Shown piece by piece: positions 1-51,291 of a stretch of DNA of 51,291 nucleotides (position 1 is the first letter of the stretch; each line of letters opens with the position of its first letter). This stretch comes from an uncultured Clostridia bacterium (GTDB lineage Bacteria > Bacillota > Clostridia > Christensenellales > UBA1242). Where the stretch lies: assembly GCA_937907645.1 (NCBI GenBank), contig CALCWV010000065.1:1-51291 (forward strand). Reading direction: 5' to 3'. The notes below the pieces were generated by a model. That model was not told the DNA's origin and made no database searches. It saw only the letters and a program-made list of their open reading frames with translations. The translations under genes were made by a program, and so were the position numbers.

Positions 1-95
1 AAAAACTTGCCACTGGCAACTTTTCTTAACGCGTCGCCCCCTCCGTCTCCACCAAGCAAAGATAAAAAGGACGTTAAAGTCCTTTTTTCTTTGCA

Positions 96-288
96 ATGAA
101 ATTGAACTTTACGGTTCAGTGATATTGCTACGCAATGCAATTCAACAAGTTGAATGAAATTTTTGCTGTCGCAAAAGTTAAGGCTTAATTTCATATCATT
201 ATGAGCGAAGCGAATAATATCATTGCGAATGAAACGAGTGATATCATTGACCAAGCGTCAATATCATTGGCGGAACGCCAATATCATT
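96..288. repeat. Tandem array of nine short, sequence-distinct hairpins punctuated by an AT-rich 8-mer
   Basis: ATATCATT starts at 193, 217, 241, 261 and 281 (spacing 24, 24, 20, 20). Degenerate forms ATGAAATT, GTGATATT, ATGCAATT and ATGAAATT start at 96, 119, 135 and 154. Hairpins include TGAAC/GTTCA (103-118), ATTGC/GCAAT (124-136), ATTCAAC/GTTGAAT (140-155), TTTTGC/GCAAAA (161-176), ATTAT..GCGAAGC..ATAAT (198-218), 219-242, ATTGAC/GTCAAT (246-262) and ATTGGCG/CGCCAAT (266-282). Confidence 0.6.
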
Positions 289-303
289 AAATGCAAAACA
301 AAT

Positions 304-322
304 AAGCCGAAAGGCTTTTTTT
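304..322 (+). terminator. Intrinsic terminator directly after the hairpin array
   Basis: AAGCC-GAAA-GGCTT stem-loop followed by a T-run. Confidence 0.6.
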
Positions 323-2564: not shown

Positions 2565-3467
2565 ATGTTTGACATTTTGATTATCGGAGGCGGGCCAGCT
2601 GGAATAACAGCAGCAATCTACGCAAAGAGAGCAAATAAAAATGTAGCAGTTATAGAAAAACTCGTTCCAGGCGGGCAAGTCGCACTTATTGGGGAGATTG
2701 AAAATTATCCGGGATTTGGAAAAATCAGTGGAGCCGCTTTGTCAATGGATTTTTACAAGCATGCAGGCTATCTTGGCGTTGAATTTATATATGACGAAGC
2801 TATGAAATTCAGCCTTCGCGGAAAAGTTAAGAAAGTTGAGTGTAAGAACAATACTTATGAGACTCGCGCTGTGATTTTTGCTCTTGGGTCAACTTCAAAA
2901 GAACTCAATGTTGAAGGTGAAAAAAGATTATTCGGCAAGGGCGTGAGCTATTGTGCAATGTGCGACGGAAACTTCTATAAAGGACAGGATGTTGCAGTTG
3001 TAGGATCTGGCGACTCAGCCGTTTCGAACGCAATGTATCTTTCTTCCTTGTGTAAGAATGTTCATCTATTTATGAAAGAAAGAACGAAATTAAATGTATA
3101 TAAAGAGGAAAACTTAAAAAATATAAAAAATCTCATAATCCACAAGGGGGTTAGAATAACAAAGATTGACGGAAAAGATAGAGTGAGAGGCTTGGAATAC
3201 ATTGAGGGAGAAAAAACAAAGAAGTGCAAAGTCGAAGGCGTATTTGTTGCGGTGGGGAGAGTTCCTGACACTGCTATGCTTAAGGGAAAAATAAAGCTTG
3301 ACGAGAAGGGATATATCCTTACAACTGACAATGTAAAAACAAGCGCAAACGGAGTCTTCGCGTGCGGCGACATCGTTAGCGGCTCTTTAAAGCAAATAGT
3401 TGTAGCAAGTGGAATGGGCGCGTTAGCCGCCACAGAAGCGATAAAGTATATTGCAGAGAATAACTAA
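2565..3467 (+). CDS. trxB: Thioredoxin-disulfide reductase
   Basis: GGGPAG FAD-binding motif at the N-terminus, redox-active CAMC motif, and a second GSGDSA dinucleotide motif. GGAGG RBS. Confidence 0.9.
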   Translation: MFDILIIGGGPAGITAAIYAKRANKNVAVIEKLVPGGQVALIGEIENYPGFGKISGAALSMDFYKHAGYLGVEFIYDEAMKFSLRGKVKKVECKNNTYETRAVIFALGSTSKELNVEGEKRLFGKGVSYCAMCDGNFYKGQDVAVVGSGDSAVSNAMYLSSLCKNVHLFMKERTKLNVYKEENLKNIKNLIIHKGVRITKIDGKDRVRGLEYIEGEKTKKCKVEGVFVAVGRVPDTAMLKGKIKLDEKGYILTTDNVKTSANGVFACGDIVSGSLKQIVVASGMGALAATEAIKYIAENN

Positions 3468-12512: not shown

Positions 12513-12680
12513 CTTTGTCTCCTTTTTATAATTTTGTGTTTCAAGCAAAATAAAATCTCTACGCCATAAGGAAAGGCATAGAGATTGGAAGAATCTATAT
12601 ATACACCTTATCCTCGGCAAGTTTACGTTAGTAAGTTATGCTTTCGCACTTGCTGTCTATGGAAAGACTTTATTTTACGT
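12513..12680 (-). promoter_or_regulatory. rplJ 5' leader, probably the L10(L12)4 autoregulatory leader
   Basis: About 165-nt untranslated leader between a consensus promoter and rplJ. The assignment rests on position and known Firmicute biology. I did not verify the structure. Confidence 0.45.
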
Positions 12681-29718: not shown

Positions 29719-31257
29719 ATGAAAGAAGAAGAAAAAACTAAAAAGAAAAAAGGTAAAAAGAGCGTGGTGCTCTGGCTATTTGGAGTGGGCGTTTTTTCTG
29801 TGGCAACGTTACTTGTTAGTCAATTTGCATTTATTGATAATTTTAATTCAAACAAAACGTTTATGGATAACACCACGATAAATGGAATTGACGTTTCAGG
29901 ACTGACAGAAAGGCAGGCCGAGAACGTTGTGGCATACAATCTGCTTAATGTGCGAGATGAGATATCTTTGAATTTAAGTTATAAAGACAAGAATTGGACT
30001 TTTGCAGGCTCTGATTTTGAAATAGCAACAGATATTGATAAAAAAGTGCATGAAGCAATTGAGTATGGTCAGTCAGGAAACTTTTTTGAGAAAAGAAAGA
30101 TAAAAAACAAAGTAAAAAAAGAAGGGCTTGCCTTCAATGTGTCATATAAATCGGTGCTTGGTGGCATCGAAAGTAAAATAGATGATGTCGTGGCAGAAAT
30201 TGAACAGGATAGCGCGCCGGCGGAGGTTGTTTTCAATCCTGACAGCGAACAAAAGTTTGATCTAATTCCAGCAAAAAATGATATAAAAGTTGACAAGGAA
30301 AAGCTTATCCAAGAGATTGATGAGCAGTTAGCGACAAGCAAAACTGCGCAAGTAGAAATCCCAACGACGGAGCTAGTCACGGAGGTTGATAAAGAGGCAA
30401 TTTTATCTAAGCTTGGACTAAGAAGCAAATTTTCAACTAATTATTCAAAGTCAACAAACAACAGAAAAAACAATGTTAAGCGTGCGCTTAGTAGTTTCAA
30501 TGGAATGGTTGTTGCACCAGGGCAAAAAGTTTCTTTCAACGAAACGACTGGCCCAAGGACGGAAGAAAATGGATTTAAAAAAGCAAACATTATCTTAAAT
30601 GGGGCGTACGTGGAAGGCGTAGGCGGGGGAGTGTGCCAAGCATCAACGACGCTTTACAACGCACTGCTTCTTTCAGGAATTGACGTTGTTGAAGCATCTC
30701 ATCATTCACTTCCAGCATCTTATGTGCCTCTTTCGCTAGACGCCATGGTTTCGGAAGGAGTTTCTGACATGGTGTTTGTAAACAATATGGATAGCCCAAT
30801 TTACATCAAAACATATGGAACGGACACTGAAATCATAGTTGAAATTTATGGGAACAAACTTGCGGACGGCGAGGAAATTAGAACTCGCGCAGAACTTGTG
30901 AAAATCCTGCCACACAATGGGGATAAAATTGTTCCAGACACGAACGAAGAATATTCAAACTACATCGTTTATAAGGGTGAGTACTATCGTGTTAAGTATC
31001 CTCAAGAAGGCTACGAATCCAAAGCCTACGTTCAATATTTGAAAGATGGTGAGCTCCTTAGTGAAAAAGAAGTGCGTCATGACTTTTACTATCCTCAAGA
31101 AGGAATAATTATGGAAGGGACTGAAGAAGTTTCCGAAGGAATAACTCTTCCAGAAAATAAAGTAAAATTCATTCCACCTCAAATAGTGACGGAAGCTGAG
31201 ACGATGAATGTGAGGAAGAGGGTTGAAAAAAACAACCCCCCAATGTATAATCCATAA
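29719..31257 (+). CDS. VanW-family protein, membrane-anchored
   Basis: N-terminal TM helix and the VanW core GGGVCQASTTLYNA. 512 aa. Confidence 0.85.
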   Translation: MKEEEKTKKKKGKKSVVLWLFGVGVFSVATLLVSQFAFIDNFNSNKTFMDNTTINGIDVSGLTERQAENVVAYNLLNVRDEISLNLSYKDKNWTFAGSDFEIATDIDKKVHEAIEYGQSGNFFEKRKIKNKVKKEGLAFNVSYKSVLGGIESKIDDVVAEIEQDSAPAEVVFNPDSEQKFDLIPAKNDIKVDKEKLIQEIDEQLATSKTAQVEIPTTELVTEVDKEAILSKLGLRSKFSTNYSKSTNNRKNNVKRALSSFNGMVVAPGQKVSFNETTGPRTEENGFKKANIILNGAYVEGVGGGVCQASTTLYNALLLSGIDVVEASHHSLPASYVPLSLDAMVSEGVSDMVFVNNMDSPIYIKTYGTDTEIIVEIYGNKLADGEEIRTRAELVKILPHNGDKIVPDTNEEYSNYIVYKGEYYRVKYPQEGYESKAYVQYLKDGELLSEKEVRHDFYYPQEGIIMEGTEEVSEGITLPENKVKFIPPQIVTEAETMNVRKRVEKNNPPMYNP

Positions 31258-31261
31258 AAGC

Positions 31262-31320
31262 TTCGCTATGCGTTGTTTACTGCTGTCTATCCCAGACAGT
31301 CATTTACGGGGTTGTAAACT
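31262..31320 (-). repeat. Inverted, 3'-truncated copy of the H/X module
   Basis: 31291-31320 is the exact reverse complement of 32067-32096. On the plus strand it ends in GTAAACTTTTT and could terminate the vanW-family gene. Confidence 0.6.
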
Positions 31321-31324
31321 TTTT

Positions 31325-31479
31325 GCTAGCGCGGGGCTAATGGCCCCTTGCTTCGCATAACCGCACAAATCAATTCTTTTTCAGTATTTTCTCTGTTTCA
31401 GAACCGCCGATGAGGAACCTCTATCGAGAACCTGAAACAAAGAAACTACAAGAAAAATCTCTTGATTTCTGCTGCCATA
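31325..31479 (+). ncRNA. Candidate structured RNA module M1 (copy E1)
   Basis: Collinear with 7456-7606 and with the reverse complement of 31853-32006. It lies 3' of the vanW-family gene in the same orientation. Confidence 0.45.
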
Positions 31480-31558
31480 TCTCTGCGATTGATTTTTATA
31501 AAAACACATATAAAAATTTTAGATAAAAAATCGAGTGAGTCACGAGGCTCGCTGTTCT

Positions 31559-31598
31559 CCTCTGGAATGAGTTTAGTTCTCTAAATGATTTTCAGAGG
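31559..31598 (+). repeat. H-module hairpin
   Basis: CCTCTGGAA-tGA-GTTTAG-ttct-CTAAAT-GA-TTTTCAGAGG, followed by a GTGAATCGC...TTTTTTTCTAAAAT tail like that at 32100-32138. Confidence 0.55.
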
Positions 31599-31655
31599 GG
31601 GACAGCAGAAACAATGTGAATCGCTTAATTTTTTTCTAAAATCAGGCTCTGCAGT

Positions 31656-31699
31656 CAGTTCAGGCAGGCGCATAGTGACCTATGTAACTGTCTGAACTG
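31656..31699. repeat. Long hairpin sharing the CAGGCAG/CTGTCTG stem of the H module
   Basis: 12-bp stem CAGTTCAGGCAG/CTGTCTGAACTG enclosing the inner hairpin CATAG/CTATG. Confidence 0.55.
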
Positions 31700-31731
31700 A
31701 ATGCTAGAAACAAAGCTATGCAAACTTTTGA

Positions 31732-31785
31732 GGCTCGCGCTAGTTATTTTAATTTTAGAAAAAAAAGGCGAGTCGCTAGGCTCGG
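31732..31785 (+). repeat. 54-bp perfect direct repeat, copy 1
   Basis: Identical to 31995-32048 (GGCTCGCGCTAGTTATTTTAATTTTAGAAAAAAAAGGCGAGTCGCTAGGCTCGG). Confidence 0.85.
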
Positions 31786-31811
31786 TGCTTTTAAATTGAA
31801 TGTATTTTAAA

Positions 31812-32006
31812 CAAAAAAAGGATAATACGAAAATTATCCTTTTTCATAGAATTATGACAGCAGAAATCAAAAGATTTTTCTTGTAGTTTCTTTGTTTCAG
31901 GTTCCCGGTAGAGTTCACTCATCGGAGGTTCTGAAACGGAGAAAATACTGAAAAAGAATTGATTTATGCGGCGATAAACTGAGCAAGAGCCATTGGCTCG
32001 CGCTAG
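31812..32006 (-). ncRNA. Candidate structured RNA module M1 (copy E2) with intrinsic terminator
   Basis: M1 body on the minus strand at 32006-31853, then terminator GGATAAT/ATTATCC (31820-31839) plus a U-run. It lies 3' of tuf in the same orientation, with no strong terminator in between. Confidence 0.45.
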
Positions 32007-32048
32007 TTATTTTAATTTTAGAAAAAAAAGGCGAGTCGCTAGGCTCGG
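31995..32048 (+). repeat. 54-bp perfect direct repeat, copy 2
   Basis: Identical to 31732-31785. Its first 12 nt are the 5' end of M1 copy E2. Confidence 0.85.
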
Positions 32049-32055
32049 CATTTCT

Positions 32056-32137
32056 CCCAGGCAGGAGTTTACAACCCCGTAAATGACTGTCTGGGAAAAG
32101 TGACAGAAACGACGCGAATCGCTTTCTTTTTCTAAAA
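32056..32137 (+). repeat. H/X module (hairpin plus GCGAATCGC..TTTTTCTAAAAT tail) abutting the tuf stop codon
   Basis: CCCAGGCAG-GA-GTTTAC-aacccc-GTAAAT-GA-CTGTCTGGG at 32056-32095. Confidence 0.6.
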
Positions 32138-33340
32138 TTATTCGATGATTGTTGAAACAACACCTGATCCAACTGTTCTTCCGCCTTCACGGATAGCGAA
32201 ACGAAGTCCTTCTTCGATAGCAATTGGTGTGATAAGAGTGATTTCCATCTTAACGTTATCACCAGGCATAACCATTTCAACGCCTTTCTCTAATTCGATT
32301 GTTCCAGTAACGTCTGTTGTTCTGAAGTAGAATTGTGGTCTATATCCATTAAAGAATGGTGTGTGACGTCCACCCTCTTCTTTCTTCAATACGTAAACTT
32401 GAGCAGTGAATTTTGTGTGTGGGTGAATTGAACCTGGTTTGCAAAGAACTTGTCCTCTTTCGATATCTGTTCTTTGAATTCCTCTAAGAAGAAGACCTAC
32501 GTTATCTCCGGCTCTAGCTTCGTCAAGAAGTTTTCTAAACATTTCTACACCAGTAATAACTGTTTGTCTTTGTGTTCCCATACCAACGATTTCAACTGTA
32601 TCGTTCATACGAACAACACCTCTTTCTACTCTACCAGTTGCAACTGTTCCACGACCTGTGATTGTGAAAACGTCTTCGATTGGCATTAAGAAAGGTTTGT
32701 CTGTATCTCTCTTTGGAGCTGGGATATAGTTGTCAACAGCGTCAAGTAATTCCCAAATACAGTTAAGGTCTGGGCTGTTTACATCTCCTCTGTCGCAAGC
32801 TTCGTTAGCTTTAAGAGCTGATCCCTTAATAATAGGTGTCTTGTCACCAGGGAATCCGTATTCTGTAAGAAGGTCTCTAACTTCCATTTCTACAAGTTCA
32901 AGTAATTCAGGATCGTCTACTTGATCAACCTTGTTCAAGAATACAACGATATATGGAACACCAACCTGTCTAGCAAGAAGGATGTGTTCTCTTGTTTGAG
33001 GCATTGGTCCATCAGTAGCAGCAACTACTAAGATAGCTCCGTCCATTTGAGCAGCTCCAGTAATCATGTTCTTAACGTAGTCAGCGTGTCCTGGGCAGTC
33101 AACGTGAGCATAGTGACGTTTAGCTGTTTGATATTCAACGTGAGCTGTGTTAATTGTGATTCCTCTAGCTTTCTCTTCTGGTGCCTTATCGATTTCATCA
33201 TATTTCATAGCGTCAGCTAATCCTTTCATAGCTGAAGCACGGCAGATAGCAGCTGTTAATGTTGTTTTACCATGGTCTACGTGTCCAATAGTACCAATGT
33301 TAACGTGTTCTTTGCTTCTGTCAAATTGTTCTTTTGCCAT
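32138..33340 (-). CDS. tuf: Elongation factor Tu
   Basis: [14 protein letters not shown] and NKVD GTPase motifs. 400 aa. Confidence 0.97.
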
Positions 33341-33375
33341 TTTTTAAAAATCTCCTTTTTTAGTTTTACTCTTGT

Positions 33376-33403
33376 ATTTTAGCATACTTTTTTAATTTTT
33401 CAA
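33376..33403 (-). promoter_or_regulatory. Putative internal promoter for tuf
   Basis: On the minus strand: TTGAAA, 16-nt spacer ending in TGC, TAAAAT. Confidence 0.45.
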
Positions 33404-33472
33404 AGTGATTTAACACACTTTTTCAAAAATTATTTTTCCAAGAGAGGGTTGCCCCTCCCCGGTCAAATACAA

Positions 33473-35551
33473 TTAGTCTTTTTTAGCTCTTTCGCCTTTA
33501 ACTTTTTCAGCGATTGAGCGAGGAACTTCTTGATATTTAAGAGGTTCCATAACATATGTTCCTCTTCCTTGTGTTTGTGAACGAAGGTCAGTTGCATATC
33601 CGAACATTTCAGCAAGTGGAACTTCAGCGTTAACGATTTGAACTCCGTTAGCAGACTCGTTTCCTGTAAGTACACCACGACGAGATGTTAAGTTACCCAT
33701 AACTGTTCCAAGGTAGTCGTCAGGAACTTCTACTGAAACTTTCATAATAGGTTCGAGTAGTACTGGATCAGCGAGCTTGCAAGCGTTCTGGAATGCCATA
33801 GATCCGGCAATCTTAAATGCCATTTCAGATGAGTCTACTTCGTGGTATGATCCGTCAGTAACTGTTACTCTAAAGTCAACTGTCTCGTATCCTGCTACAA
33901 CACCATTCTTTCTAGCTTCATCAATTCCGTTGTTAACAGGTTGAATATATTCTTTTGGAATAGATCCACCAACTGTCTTATCAACGAATTCATATCCGCT
34001 ACCAGCTGGCAATGGTTCCATATCGATCACGCAGTGACCATATTGTCCCTTACCACCAGACTGACGAATGAATTTACCTTCAACGTTCTTAACAGCTTTC
34101 TTGATTGTTTCTCTGTAAGAAACTTGAGGTTGTCCGATATTAGCTTCTACTTTGAATTCTCTAAGTAATCTATCTACGATAATTTCAAGGTGAAGTTCTC
34201 CCATTCCTGCAATAAGAGTTTGACCTGTTTCTTGGTTTGTTGAAACTCTGAATGAAGGGTCTTCTCTCATAAGTTTTGCAAGTGCGAGAGCCATTTTTTC
34301 TTGCATATCCTTTGTTTTTGGTTCGATAGCAAGTTGGATAACAGGTTCTGGGAAGTCCATGCTTTCCAATTGGATAGGATGTTTTTCATCACAAAGAGTG
34401 TGGCCTGTGATTGTATCCTTAAGTCCAACGATAGCTGCGATATCTCCAGCTCCTACTTCTGTAATTTCTTGACGTGTGTTAGCGTGCATACGAATAAGAC
34501 GTCCAACACGTTCTGTTTTTCCGTTTACTGAGTTGTAAACGTATGTTCCAGCTTTGAGTACACCACTGTATACACGGAAGAATGTTAATCCTCCTACGAA
34601 TGGGTCTGTCATAATCTTGAATGCAAGACCAGCAAATGGAGCATCTTCGCTTGGAGCTCTTGTTTCTGTTTCACCAGTTTCAGGGTTAATTCCTGTGATA
34701 TGATCGATATCAAGTGGTGATGGTAAATATTCTACCATAGCATCCAAAAGCATTTGAACACCTTTGTTCTTATAAGATGATCCGCAAAGAACAGGTGTAA
34801 GAGCTTTAGAAATTGTTGCTTTCCTAATAGCTTTCTTTAATTCGTCGATTGAGATTTCCTCTCCTTCAAAATATCTTTCTAAAAGAGCATCGTCTGTTTC
34901 AACGATTTTTTCTACCATTTCATCATGAAGTTGTTGTGCTTTATCTTTAAATTCTGCAGGGATATCAGTAATTTCAATAACTTGTCCCATATCATCTTTG
35001 TAAACTTCAGCCTTCATTGTGAGCAAGTCGATAATTCCTCTGAATGTATCAGCTTCTCCGATAGGCATTTGAATAGCAAGAGCCTTTGTCTTTAATCTCT
35101 TTTCAATTGATTCTACGCAAGCGAAGAAGTCAGCTGCGTCTCTATCCATTTTGTTTACGTAAATAATTACAGGAACTTTGTATTTTGTAGCTTGACGCCA
35201 AACTGTTTCAGTTTGAGGTTGTACCTTATCACGAGCACTAAGTACAAGAACAGCACCATCAAGAACCTTTAGTGAACGCTCAACTTCTACTGTGAAGTCT
35301 ACGTGTCCTGGGGTATCAATGATGTTAATCTTATGACCTTTCCATGTACAAGTTGTACAAGCAGAAGTAATTGTGATACCTCTTTCTTGTTCTTGAGCCA
35401 TCCAGTCCATTGTTGCACTACCGTCGTGAACTTCACCGATTTTATGTGTTTTACCAGTGTAGAACAAAATTCTTTCAGTAGTTGTTGTCTTTCCAGCATC
35501 AATGTGGGCCATAATACCAACGTTTCTAGTTAGTCTAAGGTCGTTAGCCAT
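33473..35551 (-). CDS. fusA: Elongation factor G
   Basis: [17 protein letters not shown] and NKMD motifs. 692 aa. Confidence 0.97.
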
Positions 35552-46505: not shown

Positions 46506-49500
46506 TTATGCCCAGTGGATCCATAAATCATCCAAATAGATCCATTCTCCATTTGCATCAGTTATTTGCTGTCCGTTCCATTTTAAATTTTTCTCCAAAT
46601 AATGCTCAGAAGAGTCCCATCGATGAATATTCGTTTCACCGCCGCTGCTTGTTGCGTTTATGTGGTAAGAAGAATCTTTTCCAGTTGGTGATTGTAGAGG
46701 AACTTTGTTTCCATATGAAACCGTCTGATAAATAGCAAAATTTGTAAAGCTTATAAATTGATTTTTACTCCAATTGGTATATGCAGTTAATGCATGATAA
46801 CTATTTGGATTTAAGTTTGAGTCATATTTAAATTCGAAGGTCATACTAACCTTTGTCAGACTAGAACTTAATGTTACCGTCTTATTAGGCCTCTCATACT
46901 TTGATGTGCTTGGGTTAAACATCTCTCCTGCCTCAAATTCTAATGTAACTGTTTTCCCAGGCGTTCCAGTAACATCAAACTCCAGGGTATATTCTTGATT
47001 TTGAAGCATATAATTTTGTAAATTTTGAATAATTGGTCCCGATTGATCTGCCGTCCCCAAACTTGTCCATCTCGCGACTGCGCCTGAATTTTCAATTGTC
47101 CATGTCTTATCTTTATCTTCATTATAAGAATGTAGAAGTAGCGAATTATCTCCTTCGTTGAACTTATACTGGCCATAAAGTCCAAGCACACCAAGTTTAA
47201 AAGTACGTCGTTGAAGTTTAAGCGTCAATGTCAAATTGGCATCTTGTGGATAATGCTCAAAATATTGTACCAAATAATAGAATCCATTTACTAAGTAAGA
47301 GAGAGGATTTCCTTTTTCATCAGTATAACCAGATTCATATTTTCCTCCTATCGGATTTTCCCCCCAGTATCCTACAAGTGAATAACCTGTTGGAGGCGTA
47401 GGCATCGTTATTCTAGTTATTTGATTTGTACAAGCCGCATTCGAATAGAGTTTATTAACACCTCTTCTTAAATAAATAGTTGATGTCCCTCCTGAAGCCC
47501 CATTTTTATCAAGATTTACAGTTACAACATTTCCAACCCATTTTGCTGATAGAGTTTTATCCGATGCAAGGTATTTATAAACATAATCATATTTCACTGT
47601 TCCGGATGATGAAGTTGTTCCAGCTGTGAATGAACCAGTTCCGGCATTTGTATAGAAAGTTCCACTAGTTAAATCAAATAATCCAATTACTCCGTCTGAA
47701 TTTCTTTTTACAGGAATATAATCACGAATCAAAGTACGGTTCTTCCAAACCTTAAAAGCATATAGTTTCATTTTCGAGAAATTATCTGGATTACCTGCTC
47801 GATTATCTGCAAATATTGATAAAGAAGAATTAGATTGTCTTGTAATAGTAGTCGTGATATTATAATCATATGTTGCTGGTCCGCGAATACTAAACTTTTT
47901 TTCTAGTCCATCCAGCGTAATACTTGTTCTTCCTGTAGTCGCTGAAACAGTAGATGCCGTCCAATTTCCTATGCCATCTTTATAAGCAAAAGCCCATTTT
48001 GCATCTCCATTTATATATACCCCAAATGATACATTATTTGAAGTATCTGTGTCAAATGTATGTCCAAAAGGTCGTTGTTGACGAGTCGTTACATCTGTAT
48101 ATTGGAAATCTGCAAACACCTTAATGTCGCTTGTAGTATAAACTCCGGTATCAATATATTGAGTTCCCGTAGATTGAATATAGTCAAGTATCGTATATCC
48201 ATCTATGTTTCCATACCAGCCATTGAATGTATAACCCGTTCTTGTTGGCGTTGGAAGAGTTTCATAGAAAGCTCCATAAGTATATTTTCTTGAAGAAGGA
48301 GAAACACTTCCCCCATTTGCATTAAATGTTGCAGTGTATGTTATTGGAGTCCAATCAGAGTAAATATTTACATTACCTGCATGAATCCAATTCCCTTTTG
48401 CATCCGTATATCCACTAACATTATTTTTCACATTTCCGCTTCCATCGGTTAATTGACTTCCATTTAAACACCAACCCTTGAAACTAAATCCCGCTAACGT
48501 AGGAGTAGAAGGTATTTTTGTTTTGGAGCCATATGTTTGTGTAATTGAATTCAAAGTATTAAGCTTAATAAGTTGAATACTCACTTTACAATTTGTAAAT
48601 TTATATCCCCATTTTCCGTCAGAGTTGGCAGCTGAACCTTTCCAAATCCAGAAACTACAAGTTTCAATTTCTTGCTGATTTTGCTCTGAGATTGTTACAA
48701 CTCCTGAAATCCAAGTTTCACCAACTGCTGGTAATCTTCCAAGGCTTTGATAAACACGGGCACCAGACAAGTTAGTTCTATCTCCACGTTTAAATTCGAA
48801 TGCTAAACAAGCTCCCGTTCCCAATCTTTCAAACGATCCGTCGAGGGTACTTACTTTAAACGCATATCTCTCTCCAGCTTTAACTCTCAATCCACGTAGA
48901 AGGCCAATCGTAATATTTGCATTTGTCATTGAACCATTTAAAGTCATACTTGCTCCGTCTGAACTTGGAGTAATAGTTATACCTTCTTCTGTTCGTGCTG
49001 TATTTGACCATGTTCCTCCACCATTCAGAGGTTGATAATTATATACTGATGCTGTATATGTATTCGCCGTCCACTGAGGATAAACTGTTGTGTCTGAGGC
49101 TTTTACATATTTTCTATTTGAATCTGTATACCCAGAAAGTGTTTTAATCTTTCCGTCTGCTCCTATAAGCTGTGAACCGCCTGTTTCACTCGTATAATAT
49201 CCGTTGAATGTATAGCCCGTCTTGCTTACTATTGGATTGTTGTCGCAAATTTGATCGTATGTCGCCAATTTGGAAAGCCTGATATTTTTTACATATAGAA
49301 TGTCTCCAACTTCATAAGGGGCATCAAATGTTAACGATTTCCATTGAACATTTTTATCATATGTAAAATCTATCATTCTTGTCTCATAAGTTGTTGATAT
49401 ACTGATTTCTTTTATTAGATAATTTCCCGCCTCAATCCTCATATCTACTACGCTTAATTCTCTGCTCGATTTAATATCAACAGTTAAGCGATATCTTTCG

Positions 49501-51291
49501 CCGTTGACCATATATGGAGAAAAACCGTTAAAATAAACTCTTCCCTTTGGATAAGTTGTATCCACAGCTGTTATCTCCCACTTATATTCTCCCGACCCTG
49601 ATGTAGGCCTTGTAACCGTGCAACCATTTGTCTTTATTCTTGTCTGATTAGAGTATGCAGCAGGTAAAACTGGAAGAATTCCGTTATAAGTTATTGGATA
49701 TTCATTCGCAGTCCACTGTGCATAAAGATTTACAACCCCTCCATTCGTTGAAGTTAAGTTCTTTACGCTTGCTTGGTTAGCGTGTGCAACTGCTCCTGTT
49801 GCAGAGGTCGCCCAGCCTGCAAAAGTATAACCTGTTCTCGTAAAGGCATTTGCTGTTAAATTCTTCGCTGCGTCATATGTGTGGGTGGAATTATTCATTG
49901 TGCCCGCTCCACCATTGGCGTTGTATTTTACTTGATAGGTATTTGGTATCCAAAGGGCTTTGAGGGTTACACTTTCATTCTTGAAGTAGTATGTGTTTGA
50001 ATCCCCAAGTGCATCGTTATTGCTAAATACCTCCGTTGGTCTGATTCCGCTTGTGTTCAGCCATAGATAAGCACAGTTCTTTTCAGGAGTTTTTGGGCCT
50101 GGGATTCCTTCGCTCCACTTATTATAACATCCAAGTGCATAAAACCAACTTGTAATGCCAATTGATCCGTCGATAAATGTCGATGCGGATGAAGATTTGG
50201 CAATCCCCTGAAATGTTGTTGAACTTGTGTTTGAATTCCAATCAATATGAACAGCAGAATATCCTGTGACAGTCCCACTCGTCGCAGGGTTTGACGTCTG
50301 CTTCCACTGATTGTATTTAGTTCCTAAATGGTCATATTGAAGTAAGAATTCAAACGTAGTAAGGTTAAGTTTTGACATTGTGGAGAATTGTGCGTTCCTG
50401 TAAGTATCATTTCTGACCTTTGTCGCTAGATTGTCCGAAGATGAGAAAAGTTGTGTTCCAGAAAGATTGTTGTGATAAAGAATTTGCATCCATTCCTTGC
50501 TGTTTATCGTTTTTGTAGCGATCCACCCCGCGAACGTATATCCCGTTCTTGTCGGGTCGCTAATAGTTGTGGATGTCCCATAGTTTCCGCTAACCGAGGA
50601 ATTTGACGTAGATTCTTTATATTTTCCCCCATTTGGATTAATTGTCACTTTGTAGGTATTCGCCGTCCACTTTGCATAAAGGTTTACGACTGCGCCATTG
50701 GTTGCTGACAAGTTCTTTACGCTTGCCTCGTCATTATGTACTTTATTTCCTGACGCGGATGTCGCCCAACCTGCAAAGGTGTAGCCTGTCCTTGTGAACG
50801 TGTTTTTCGTTAATTTCTTCGCTACATCATATGTGTGAGATGAGTTCGCCATTGAGCCAGATCCGCCGTTAGCATTGTATTTTACTTGATAGCTAATTGC
50901 CGTCCATTTCGCATAGAGGGTTTTATTTCCTGTTGTTTGATACATGTTATTAATACATGTTCCGCTTGCATCTACATATTGTGTTCCAGATCCACCTGTT
51001 GATGTGAAATATCCTTTAAAGGTGTATCCTGTTCTAGTCGGAACAGTGATCTTGTAATTAGCAAGTCCAGAGGTACAAGCTTCATTTGTATAATAATAGT
51101 AAGGTGATGACTGCTCATATTTATACCAAATATTAGTCGTTCCTCCCGTTCCACTCTGCTTGTCAAATGTTACTTTGTAAACATTTGGCGACCACTGTGC
51201 ATAAATTGTATGATCCTTCGTAGAACTTACAACAGCTGTGTCTTTAACCTGTGTTCCACCACTCATTGCTGTAAACCATCCTTTAAACGTA
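46506..51291 (-). CDS. Giant modular surface/adhesin-like protein with Listeria-Bacteroides (Flg_new) repeats, partial with the 5' end outside the window
   Basis: The frame stays open to the window edge (TFKGWFTAMSGG...). It has many copies of the TRTGYTF.GW......(L/V)YA.WT repeat, interleaved with unrelated beta-rich ~150-250-aa domains. Confidence 0.85.
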   Translation of the reverse strand, partial: TFKGWFTAMSGGTQVKDTAVVSSTKDHTIYAQWSPNVYKVTFDKQSGTGGTTNIWYKYEQSSPYYYYTNEACTSGLANYKITVPTRTGYTFKGYFTSTGGSGTQYVDASGTCINNMYQTTGNKTLYAKWTAISYQVKYNANGGSGSMANSSHTYDVAKKLTKNTFTRTGYTFAGWATSASGNKVHNDEASVKNLSATNGAVVNLYAKWTANTYKVTINPNGGKYKESTSNSSVSGNYGTSTTISDPTRTGYTFAGWIATKTINSKEWMQILYHNNLSGTQLFSSSDNLATKVRNDTYRNAQFSTMSKLNLTTFEFLLQYDHLGTKYNQWKQTSNPATSGTVTGYSAVHIDWNSNTSSTTFQGIAKSSSASTFIDGSIGITSWFYALGCYNKWSEGIPGPKTPEKNCAYLWLNTSGIRPTEVFSNNDALGDSNTYYFKNESVTLKALWIPNTYQVKYNANGGAGTMNNSTHTYDAAKNLTANAFTRTGYTFAGWATSATGAVAHANQASVKNLTSTNGGVVNLYAQWTANEYPITYNGILPVLPAAYSNQTRIKTNGCTVTRPTSGSGEYKWEITAVDTTYPKGRVYFNGFSPYMVNGERYRLTVDIKSSRELSVVDMRIEAGNYLIKEISISTTYETRMIDFTYDKNVQWKSLTFDAPYEVGDILYVKNIRLSKLATYDQICDNNPIVSKTGYTFNGYYTSETGGSQLIGADGKIKTLSGYTDSNRKYVKASDTTVYPQWTANTYTASVYNYQPLNGGGTWSNTARTEEGITITPSSDGASMTLNGSMTNANITIGLLRGLRVKAGERYAFKVSTLDGSFERLGTGACLAFEFKRGDRTNLSGARVYQSLGRLPAVGETWISGVVTISEQNQQEIETCSFWIWKGSAANSDGKWGYKFTNCKVSIQLIKLNTLNSITQTYGSKTKIPSTPTLAGFSFKGWCLNGSQLTDGSGNVKNNVSGYTDAKGNWIHAGNVNIYSDWTPITYTATFNANGGSVSPSSRKYTYGAFYETLPTPTRTGYTFNGWYGNIDGYTILDYIQSTGTQYIDTGVYTTSDIKVFADFQYTDVTTRQQRPFGHTFDTDTSNNVSFGVYINGDAKWAFAYKDGIGNWTASTVSATTGRTSITLDGLEKKFSIRGPATYDYNITTTITRQSNSSLSIFADNRAGNPDNFSKMKLYAFKVWKNRTLIRDYIPVKRNSDGVIGLFDLTSGTFYTNAGTGSFTAGTTSSSGTVKYDYVYKYLASDKTLSAKWVGNVVTVNLDKNGASGGTSTIYLRRGVNKLYSNAACTNQITRITMPTPPTGYSLVGYWGENPIGGKYESGYTDEKGNPLSYLVNGFYYLVQYFEHYPQDANLTLTLKLQRRTFKLGVLGLYGQYKFNEGDNSLLLHSYNEDKDKTWTIENSGAVARWTSLGTADQSGPIIQNLQNYMLQNQEYTLEFDVTGTPGKTVTLEFEAGEMFNPSTSKYERPNKTVTLSSSLTKVSMTFEFKYDSNLNPNSYHALTAYTNWSKNQFISFTNFAIYQTVSYGNKVPLQSPTGKDSSYHINATSSGGETNIHRWDSSEHYLEKNLKWNGQQITDANGEWIYLDDLWIHWA

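Follow-up and report, generated by a model that had tools for sequence, protein, structure and literature searches.

A Gut-1 hairpin array inserted behind the transfer-messenger RNA gene of an uncultured Clostridia bacterium

A 240-nt insertion at the tmRNA 3' end

We analyzed an array of short hairpins located at the left edge of contig CALCWV010000065.1 from an uncultured Clostridia bacterium (51,291 bp, the entire contig; hereafter the window). The array is part of a 240-nt insertion (positions 55–294) directly behind the 3' end of the transfer-messenger RNA (tmRNA) gene ssrA, and its left half is a member of the Rfam family Gut-1. Our best inference is that the array is the structured-nucleic-acid arm of a horizontally spreading cassette, whose complete form also carries a gene of the PF05635 (23S_rRNA_IVP) family. 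With a probability of roughly 55% we regard the window array as a gene-less copy of a horizontally spreading non-coding module which is located behind stable-RNA genes and acts as folded single strands. An earlier sequence-only reading had described nine hairpins with different stems, punctuated by the 8-mer ATATCATT and flanked by terminator-like hairpins, and had not recognized that its left half belongs to a family already listed in Rfam.

The insertion is defined by comparison with three related contigs (L002, L003 and L004), in which the array is absent at the syntenic site. Their gene order is secG-rnr-smpB-tmRNA-terminator-neighbor gene, and the tmRNA is immediately followed by a terminator equivalent to window positions 304–322. 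In the alignment with L002 and L004, positions 55–294 of the window appear as one clean gap of 240 nt between CCACCA and AAAACAAA. The insert begins 1 nt past the CCACCA of the tmRNA and ahead of the native ssrA terminator (CAAAACAAATAAGCC gaaa GGCTTTTTTTGTTTTG, 294–328), which directly follows the tmRNA in L002, L003 and L004, is owned by the host and lies outside the insert. At the ends of the insert the alignment shows no junction duplication longer than 1 nt, and to its right the tmRNA end is not repeated.

The presence of the array does not follow the strain background. Contigs from two sequencing runs (X2 and X3) have a flank of the L004 type, that is of an array-less relative, and yet contain the array. 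Compared to the window they show 2 differences within 38–327 and about 43–64 within 329–860, the flanks being diverged by about 12%. Other arrays in those same samples have individual units in common with the window array. The presence/absence polymorphism together with near-identity across diverged backgrounds therefore points to recent horizontal spread, and the comparison shows an element that, judged by these alignments, has been gained and lost between close strains. Absence from the syntenic site in close relatives, in combination with a missing transcript and missing protein binding, had been named by the sequence-only reading as an observation that would speak against a function. The absence is real in all three contigs, but the array is highly conserved where it is present, and it is missing from relatives because it is a mobile insertion and not because it has decayed.

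The last 17 nt ahead of the insert (38–54, plus strand, CCCCTCCGTCTCCACCA) are identical to the tmRNA 3' end of L002, L003 and L004. In this contig they are an att-like duplicate of the tmRNA end; in other strains the same stretch is the real tmRNA end. In runs X1 and X3 the array directly follows the genuine tmRNA T-arm GGACGAGGGTTCAAA, without the additional elements seen upstream in the window. The latter became visible when the window was extended to the left, as the sequence-only reading had proposed, by means of a second contig (L001). Upstream of the array lie tandem modules (window 1–54; L001 5996–6626, in reverse orientation in L001), in which a unit of about 60 nt consisting of the tmRNA 3' end, a terminator and GGCGGAGCC is repeated. 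The repeats are spaced by an element of about 125 nt (E1) and by E2, a copy of E1 with an insert of about 290 nt carrying the Gut-1-like piece ACGCAATGCAATTGATGTGTCATATGAAATTCG. Positions 1–37 are the right end of this separate multi-copy element E, outside the array, as judged from the leftward extension, from read depth (about 75 over window 1–40, about 7 for the rest) and from joins of the end of E to reverse-complemented tRNA fragments in other contigs. E looks like a small multi-copy element targeting tRNA and tmRNA genes. Searches of the upstream E repeat with ARAGORN and Rfam gave no match to a tRNA, a tmRNA or a known RNA family, and its folds are unremarkable.

This arrangement raises the question whether the array is an arm-type binding region for an integrase or excisionase, left by an island at an ssrA attachment site. 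Integration at tmRNA 3' ends is a classical phenomenon, the contig contains tandem att-like duplicates of tmRNA end and terminator with small E elements between them, and the array abuts the CCA end exactly. The array itself, however, has no flanking direct repeat of the tmRNA end, there is no integrase nearby, and in X1 and X3, where E elements are missing, the array stands behind the real tmRNA. The same module is found behind many different tRNAs and also behind protein genes, and in 34 of 36 tRNA-linked cassettes the tRNA end is not repeated downstream, the two exceptions being whole second tRNA-Gly genes. We therefore consider an integrase arm region very improbable.

Gut-1 membership and two-sided architecture

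The Rfam model of Gut-1 (RF01706) matches positions 94–165 on the plus strand with 52.3 bits (threshold 50, E = 1.5e-7). On the minus strand, the model applied to 256–327 reaches 30.9 bits and remains below threshold. The original description of Gut-1 from 2010 lists 43 representatives taken from human-gut sequence and gives neither a function nor a genomic context (PMC2864571). It was detected solely in human-gut environmental sequences and rated "Y" in the RNA column of the respective table (Weinberg 2010, PMC2864571). No later publication on Gut-1 was found in the searchable literature.

The three variable hairpins and the (R)UGAAAU linkers of Gut-1 are all present in the window, the linkers being ATGAAAT (96–102), GTGATAT (119–125), ATGCAAT (135–141) and ATGAAAT (154–160). 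They had been taken for four degenerate copies of the 8-mer, but represent its reverse-complement motif. The array thus consists of two halves of opposite polarity joining at about 177–199. The proximal half (RF01706 match, 94–165, plus strand) comprises these four linkers and the hairpins tgaac/gttca (103–118), tgc-tac-gca (126–134) and tcaac-aa-gttga (142–153). It is followed by a fourth hairpin, ttttgc-tgtc-gcaaaa (161–176), which is kept in the related copies L136, L216 and L198 (the latter two as reverse complement); L136 and the reverse complement of L216 have individual hairpins in common with the window. In the center (177–199), where the polarity flips, we find GTTAAGG, an imperfect repeat of hairpin 1's 3' arm (GCTTA for GTTCA) and the first reversed linkers ATTTCAT (188–194) and ATATCAT (193–199).

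The distal half (193–287, minus strand) contains five reversed linkers ATATCAT, which read ATGATAT on the minus strand. They are part of the five exact copies of ATATCATT, whose described starts at 193, 217, 241, 261 and 281 and phasing of 24/24/20/20 we could reproduce. Only 2 further copies of this 8-mer exist elsewhere in the 51-kb window on both strands, with 3.9 expected for the whole window. The distal hairpins are tat-GAGCGAAGCGA-ata with GAGCGAAGCGA as its loop (200–216), a poor one at 224–237, tgac-caagc-gtca (248–260) and tggcg-gaa-cgcca (268–280). The insert ends with the right junction TAAATGC (288–294), as delimited by the alignment and by comparison with L252, L296 and L262. The first distal hairpin is the sole one with a conserved loop sequence rather than stem. 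Its loop is conserved as GAGCGAAGCG(A/TG) and recurs in arrays L136, L202 and L218; in Butyrivibrio crossotus, which has two arrays (L218 3785–3861 and 5000–5080), a hairpin with this loop sits about 50 nt beyond single-half arrays.

Both flanking terminator-like hairpins described earlier exist, but the first one is longer than the proposed 66–90 and spans 56–94. This long hairpin ("hairpin 0", GCAAAGAtAAAAAGGAC gttaaa GTCCTTTTTtCTTTGC) has an A-tract arm and a T-tract arm and is therefore usable as a terminator from either direction. A terminator scan detected sites at 64–87 (minus strand) and 304–317 (both strands), with 5 sites in 600 nt in comparison to 0.5 in shuffled sequences.

In order to place the window copy within its family, species-representative genomes were scanned with a pattern and arrays of the hairpin type were retained; counts from this and the other scans of genome collections are samples and not a census. 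Matches stem mostly from gut Clostridia, Christensenellaceae, Oscillospiraceae, Acutalibacteraceae and Bacilli, plus two Akkermansia bins. At least 36 hairpin-type arrays were retained, and 15 of the 36 contain both halves. They follow a common plan: a long hairpin with an A-rich and a T-rich arm, ending 0–1 nt ahead of the first motif, four units of RTGAWAT plus hairpin, a center, and four to five reversed units. The window fits this plan, with the long hairpin at 56–94, the forward half at 96–176, the center at 177–199 and the reversed half at 193–287. Some genomes contain 3–5 array copies. Among 14 Gut-1 matches at other loci, the half that reaches the threshold in two-half arrays is the one adjoining the long hairpin. 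Conservation across the family is limited to the 7-mer RTGAWAT, while its flanks vary (e.g. gcgt-ATGAAAT-acgc or ggcaa-ATGAAAT-tcgc).

The center shows a recurring feature. Directly ahead of the first reversed linker, 29 of 110 arrays repeat the 3' arm of hairpin 1 (expected number 7.0; the highest count among 500 permutations was 17); L136 and L216 have an intact GGTTCA-ATTTCAT at this position. Nine different hairpin-1 arm sequences are repeated in this way, and therefore the long-range complement covaries.

The array versions in the Akkermansia bins (L124 and L176; Verrucomicrobiota, outside Bacillota) are GC-rich, and their occurrence would fit an exchange across phyla within the gut. Viral contigs, searched for AATGAWAT in three phased copies, yielded more than 119 matches, nearly all of them plain tandem repeats in AT-rich bins of giant viruses, and no convincing array.

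The window copy thus resembles Rfam Gut-1 in the match at 94–165, in its three variable hairpins and linkers and in its source, gut metagenomes. In contrast, the model and the original paper cover one half of about 77 nt, whereas the unit described here measures about 240 nt and includes a long terminator hairpin, an arm-repeating center and a second, reversed half. It is further tied to tRNA and tmRNA 3' ends and to PF05635 genes, and it may fold on the strand complementary to the one annotated. With repeats of the REP/BIME, REPIN, BOX and MITE type the arrays have in common that they are short, gene-free, multi-copy hairpin elements at the 3' ends of transcription units, with alternating unit orientation, possible terminators and presence/absence polymorphism. 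However, REP copies share one stem sequence per genome, whereas in the arrays all stems differ and the 7-nt linker is constant; moreover no RAYT or transposase gene, target duplication or terminal inverted repeat was found. When neighboring open reading frames (ORFs) were clustered, no transposase family recurred near the arrays.

Stable-RNA genes and the PF05635 partner gene

The position behind ssrA is representative of the family. Ten arrays are located 34–56 nt behind a tRNA gene, and in 7 cases the long hairpin starts between −1 and +4 nt from the tRNA end. A hairpin of the same GAAAAAG-stem-CTTTTTCA form as the long hairpin of the window lies directly 3' of the tRNA CCA end across the family. 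The upstream neighbors of arrays are co-directional in 22 cases and opposite in 4.

Neighboring ORFs were clustered and assigned using Pfam, and the search was extended by tblastn. A gene for a protein of about 115 aa of the PF05635 family (hereafter IVP protein) adjoins arrays at eight genome loci. The order is the same at all eight: upstream gene or tRNA, long hairpin, forward half, center, reversed half, ribosome-binding site and PF05635 gene. A converse test took the protein as its starting point, with 80 metagenomic PF05635 loci, of which 64 have the at least 250 nt of upstream sequence needed for upstream counts. At least two reversed hairpin units were present upstream of the gene at 45 of these 64 loci, at least two forward units at 42, and both forward and reversed units at 33. 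Downstream of the gene, reversed units occur at 2 and forward units at 1 of 78 loci. A co-directional tRNA is located just upstream at 37 of 53 PF05635 loci, comprising 13 tRNA identities, and no tRNA was found there on the opposite strand.

The protein gene has a candidate promoter of its own. An extended −10 box lies between array and start codon at 30 of 60 distinct loci compared to 7.6% of control windows, and in complete cassettes it is preceded by ttaataTGC. The right junction TAAATGC of the window copy (288–294) resembles this sequence, and the window copy therefore stops just short of this promoter.

Two variant loci were noted. In L226 (4983–5430, reverse complement) a PF05635 gene directly follows a run of seventeen reversed units, in which three types of hairpin succeed one another in a fixed cycle. 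Ahead of this run stands TTGACA-17 nt-TATCAT, the first ATATCAT motif doubling as the −10 box. In L310 and L268 the cassette is located between two identical tRNA-Gly genes, and a few hairpin units occur downstream as well.

PF05635 has been described as resembling Avd, the accessory protein of diversity-generating retroelements (DGRs) (PMC10053308). The closest solved structure to the cassette protein, 2RLD, was deposited with five chains. The likeness to DGRs consists of the protein family only; in the vicinity of the arrays neither a reverse transcriptase nor a template or variable repeat was observed. Comparable in their layout are the intervening sequences (IVS) of 23S rRNA, which according to the family description and PMC10053308 likewise combine a small gene for a PF05635 four-helix bundle with structured non-coding flanks in or at a stable-RNA gene. 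Unlike these, the cassettes are located after tRNA and tmRNA genes and not inside 23S rRNA helices, they contain a two-half array of short hairpins instead of one long stem, and the copy in the window has no protein gene.

Pairing constraint, folded strand and possible function

The hairpins of the family are under strong pairing constraint. In 128 distinct hairpins with all-different stems, 638 of 647 stem positions are Watson-Crick pairs. In the protein-selected set, spacers with at least four pairs from their ends account for 46 of 80 and 84 of 113, respectively, in comparison to 0.8% of shuffled spacers. This supports selection on pairing rather than on sequence, as had been suggested from the differing stems of the window alone. 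The stems in the window do differ from each other, though two of the nine hairpins (177–187 and 224–237) are weak. The two poor hairpins, and a Tandem Repeats Finder result of just one weak 20-nt, 2.4-copy repeat (241–288), could be taken as signs of a simple tandem repeat in decay, or of hairpins that cluster by chance under no selection for structure. A threshold-level Rfam match, an architecture recurring over many taxa, a divergence of 2 changes in 290 nt between strains with flanks about 12% apart and, in a set chosen independently, about 100 times as many palindromic spacers as in shuffled sequences make the probability of this explanation close to negligible.

The same features bear on a role as duplex DNA. 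The sequence-only reading had seen 11-bp CAAT-ATC-ATTG palindromes about two helical turns apart, resembling an iteron, centromere or operator array, and a dimeric or oligomeric protein might accordingly bind two opposed groups of sites. The spacing of 20–24 bp and the symmetric Watson-Crick palindromes of the stems are in line with such an array, and in complete cassettes it lies between a terminator and a downstream promoter, the typical position of an operator. However, family members keep only the 7-mer RTGAWAT and not the CAAT-N3-ATTG palindrome, and binding to duplex DNA neither needs nor accounts for variable spacers staying palindromic as their sequence changes. It also leaves the polar loops and the mismatch asymmetry described below without explanation. 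No rep or par gene is adjacent, the neighbors are the same in array-less relatives, and the array is not located at a switch of the GC skew. Altogether we consider a duplex site array improbable. A location at a replication origin or terminus, for which a check of the GC skew had been suggested earlier, was rejected: the GC skew is steady at +0.16 over 1–10 kb, the nearest DnaA-box-like match is at 3136, and no cluster of DnaA boxes is found close to the array. Further along the window the skew is positive over 1–30 kb and negative over 35–50 kb, changing sign at 30000–35000, and six DnaA-box-like 9-mers (at most 1 mismatch) cluster at 49075–51204, the total for the window being 23 with 12.9 expected.

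Which strand is folded can be judged from loops and mismatches. In motif orientation the loops are T-N-C or T-N-N-C (TTC 26, TGC 9, TAC 8, TTAC 7 etc.), and their reverse complements do not occur at all; this was replicated in the protein-selected set. On the other strand these loops are therefore C(GNA)G and GNNA. GNA and GNNA loops are classic stable types. The motif GCGAAGC noticed in the window is an instance of a family-wide feature, and the array hairpins have these loops in common with known GNA/GNRA-loop DNA hairpins. Single mismatches in the interior of stems are A.C in 14 cases, G.T in 3 and other in 6 (motif orientation), which corresponds to 14 wobble-compatible pairs on the other strand and 3 on the motif strand. 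Loop type and mismatch polarity therefore suggest that the folded strand is opposite to the Rfam annotation, namely the minus strand in the proximal and the plus strand in the distal half.

Regarding higher-order folding, a ladder of four-way junctions with forward linkers pairing antiparallel to reversed ones was considered and rejected; the variable linker positions do not covary in this register. The outermost pairing alone, that of linker 1 plus the hairpin-1 arm with the center, is supported. Repeats of a type III toxin-antitoxin RNA were likewise dismissed: the units differ in sequence, and the recurring downstream gene is PF05635 and not of the ToxN type.

Rfam implies a different picture, a free-standing plus-strand small RNA (sRNA): a transcript of about 230 nt, arising as 3' trailer of ssrA or by read-through of 56–94 and ending at 304–322, which could serve as a CsrB-like decoy. 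RNAs of the CsrB/RsmZ type present a repeated short motif on many stem-loops, as does the array. In those RNAs, however, the motif is GGA and sits in the loops; here the linker is the motif, its sequence in one half is the complement of that in the other, and no promoter was detected. The threshold match to Rfam is on the plus strand, and the predicted fold of positions 91–325 as RNA is more pronounced on this strand (−65.9 kcal/mol, z = −4.2 vs. shuffles) than on the minus strand (−56.1 kcal/mol, z = −2.8). The array lies within the ssrA unit, between CCA end and native terminator, the motif points the same way as the upstream gene or tRNA in the ratio of 22 to 4 given above, and a U.G closing pair is possible in 55 of 128 units. 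In addition, RNA-derived contigs link a related array to its upstream gene, and the original authors gave Gut-1 a "Y" as RNA. Against such a transcript stands the strong terminator hairpin directly upstream together with the missing promoter. On one RNA the halves would show the complementary linkers AUGAWAU and AUWUCAU, so that one single-strand-binding protein could not recognize both. For the proximal half the loop polarity and the 14:3 ratio of mismatches indicate the other strand, and G.U pairs are nearly absent within stems. We thus regard a free-standing sRNA as unlikely, though it deserves consideration.

Our preferred interpretation, a gene-less module acting as folded single strands, envisages the following. 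The array would work as folded single strands and not as double-stranded protein sites. From the center the halves would diverge, each running into an outward terminator (87–64 on the minus strand, 304–317 on the plus strand), resulting in two short divergent structured transcripts or in equivalent displaced DNA strands. Each folded strand could then offer 4–5 phased units of linker plus hairpin as a multivalent platform, to which the oligomeric Avd-like IVP protein encoded by complete cassettes would most likely bind as the putative partner.

Promoter data bear on this for one of the two directions. Promoter-like sites directed toward the long hairpin (score of at least 10) were detected in 15 of 98 arrays, in comparison to 3 of 98 on the other strand and 2 of 98 shuffles, which is a moderate enrichment; an earlier scan of the centers using a 9-of-12 rule had yielded scattered promoter-like matches. 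As a separate observation, on the ATGAWAT strand the linker and the first bases of the next hairpin often form a string similar to an extended −10 box (TGATATAAT, TGAAATAAT; family-wide), and the arrays therefore carry repeated −10 look-alikes.

Several observations speak against this interpretation. In the window copy no promoter scored above chance, in agreement with the earlier statement that no convincing promoter is present, and rightward promoters able to drive the distal half are not enriched among the 98 arrays. Being positioned between a strong terminator and the protein gene's own downstream promoter, the array may be little transcribed. None of the RNA runs searched contains the window sequence; the metatranscriptome contigs covering a related array are direction-less and might include DNA, and other runs with related loci are probably DNA. 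In 55 of 128 units the linker starts with G, which allows a U.G closing pair on the Rfam strand and gives a C.A mismatch on the other. The copy of the hairpin-1 arm in the center of the window is imperfect, with 10 of 12 positions matching and 2 mismatches. Neither a target-site duplication nor terminal inverted repeats nor a recombinase could be detected. Finally, tblastn detected no IVP homologue in the 51-kb window; since the insert also ends at TAAATGC with the native terminator next to it, the window copy is a gene-less derivative and not a full member of the cassettes.

The neighboring genes do not seem to be involved. They encode a 154-aa protein with a weak ZnuA-like match and a 419-aa protein without family match, both also found in array-less relatives. 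The 154-aa protein had been suggested for binding assays, but its gene is present and unchanged in relatives without the array; only three homologues were found, and identity to the counterparts in the related contigs is 76–79%. The 419-aa protein (1206–2465) has an N-terminal hydrophobic segment and a body very rich in Glu and Lys, with internal repeats of 12–18 nt (1624–1788). The protein has no Pfam match and is conserved in relatives. Among other structured RNAs, a ribosomal protein L10 leader is located at 12541–12680 on the minus strand (69.6 bits). Relatives contain a T-box-like leader upstream of tyrS (L002 5155–5342, minus strand) with 76.8 bits, below the Rfam threshold of 93, and its counterpart in the window is likewise below threshold.

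For the window alone the conclusion is a modest one: what lies behind ssrA is a passenger that was acquired, and not an origin, a centromere or a regulator of neighboring genes. At ssrA this copy is most likely a selfish passenger, whose only likely local effect is an extra ssrA terminator. Beyond that, we put forward a further-reaching and rather speculative idea, which we think is unlikely to be right. Gut-1 arrays together with the PF05635 gene might constitute an undescribed mobile cassette that homes to exact tRNA and tmRNA 3' ends without integrase, target duplication or tRNA-end repeat. Its hairpin arrays would serve as the structure for recognition or propagation, and spread would perhaps proceed via an RNA or single-stranded DNA intermediate using the CCA end, with an Avd-like cofactor. 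If this were true, "Gut-1 RNA" would be annotated in Rfam on the wrong strand and would represent one arm of an element.

Gut-1, an orphan since 2010, gains a full anatomy of about 240 nt with two opposed halves and a built-in terminator, a genomic address at tRNA and tmRNA 3' ends, and a partner gene, the Avd-like PF05635. For the widespread PF05635 family this points to a possible role, which would parallel its presence inside the intervening sequences of 23S rRNA.

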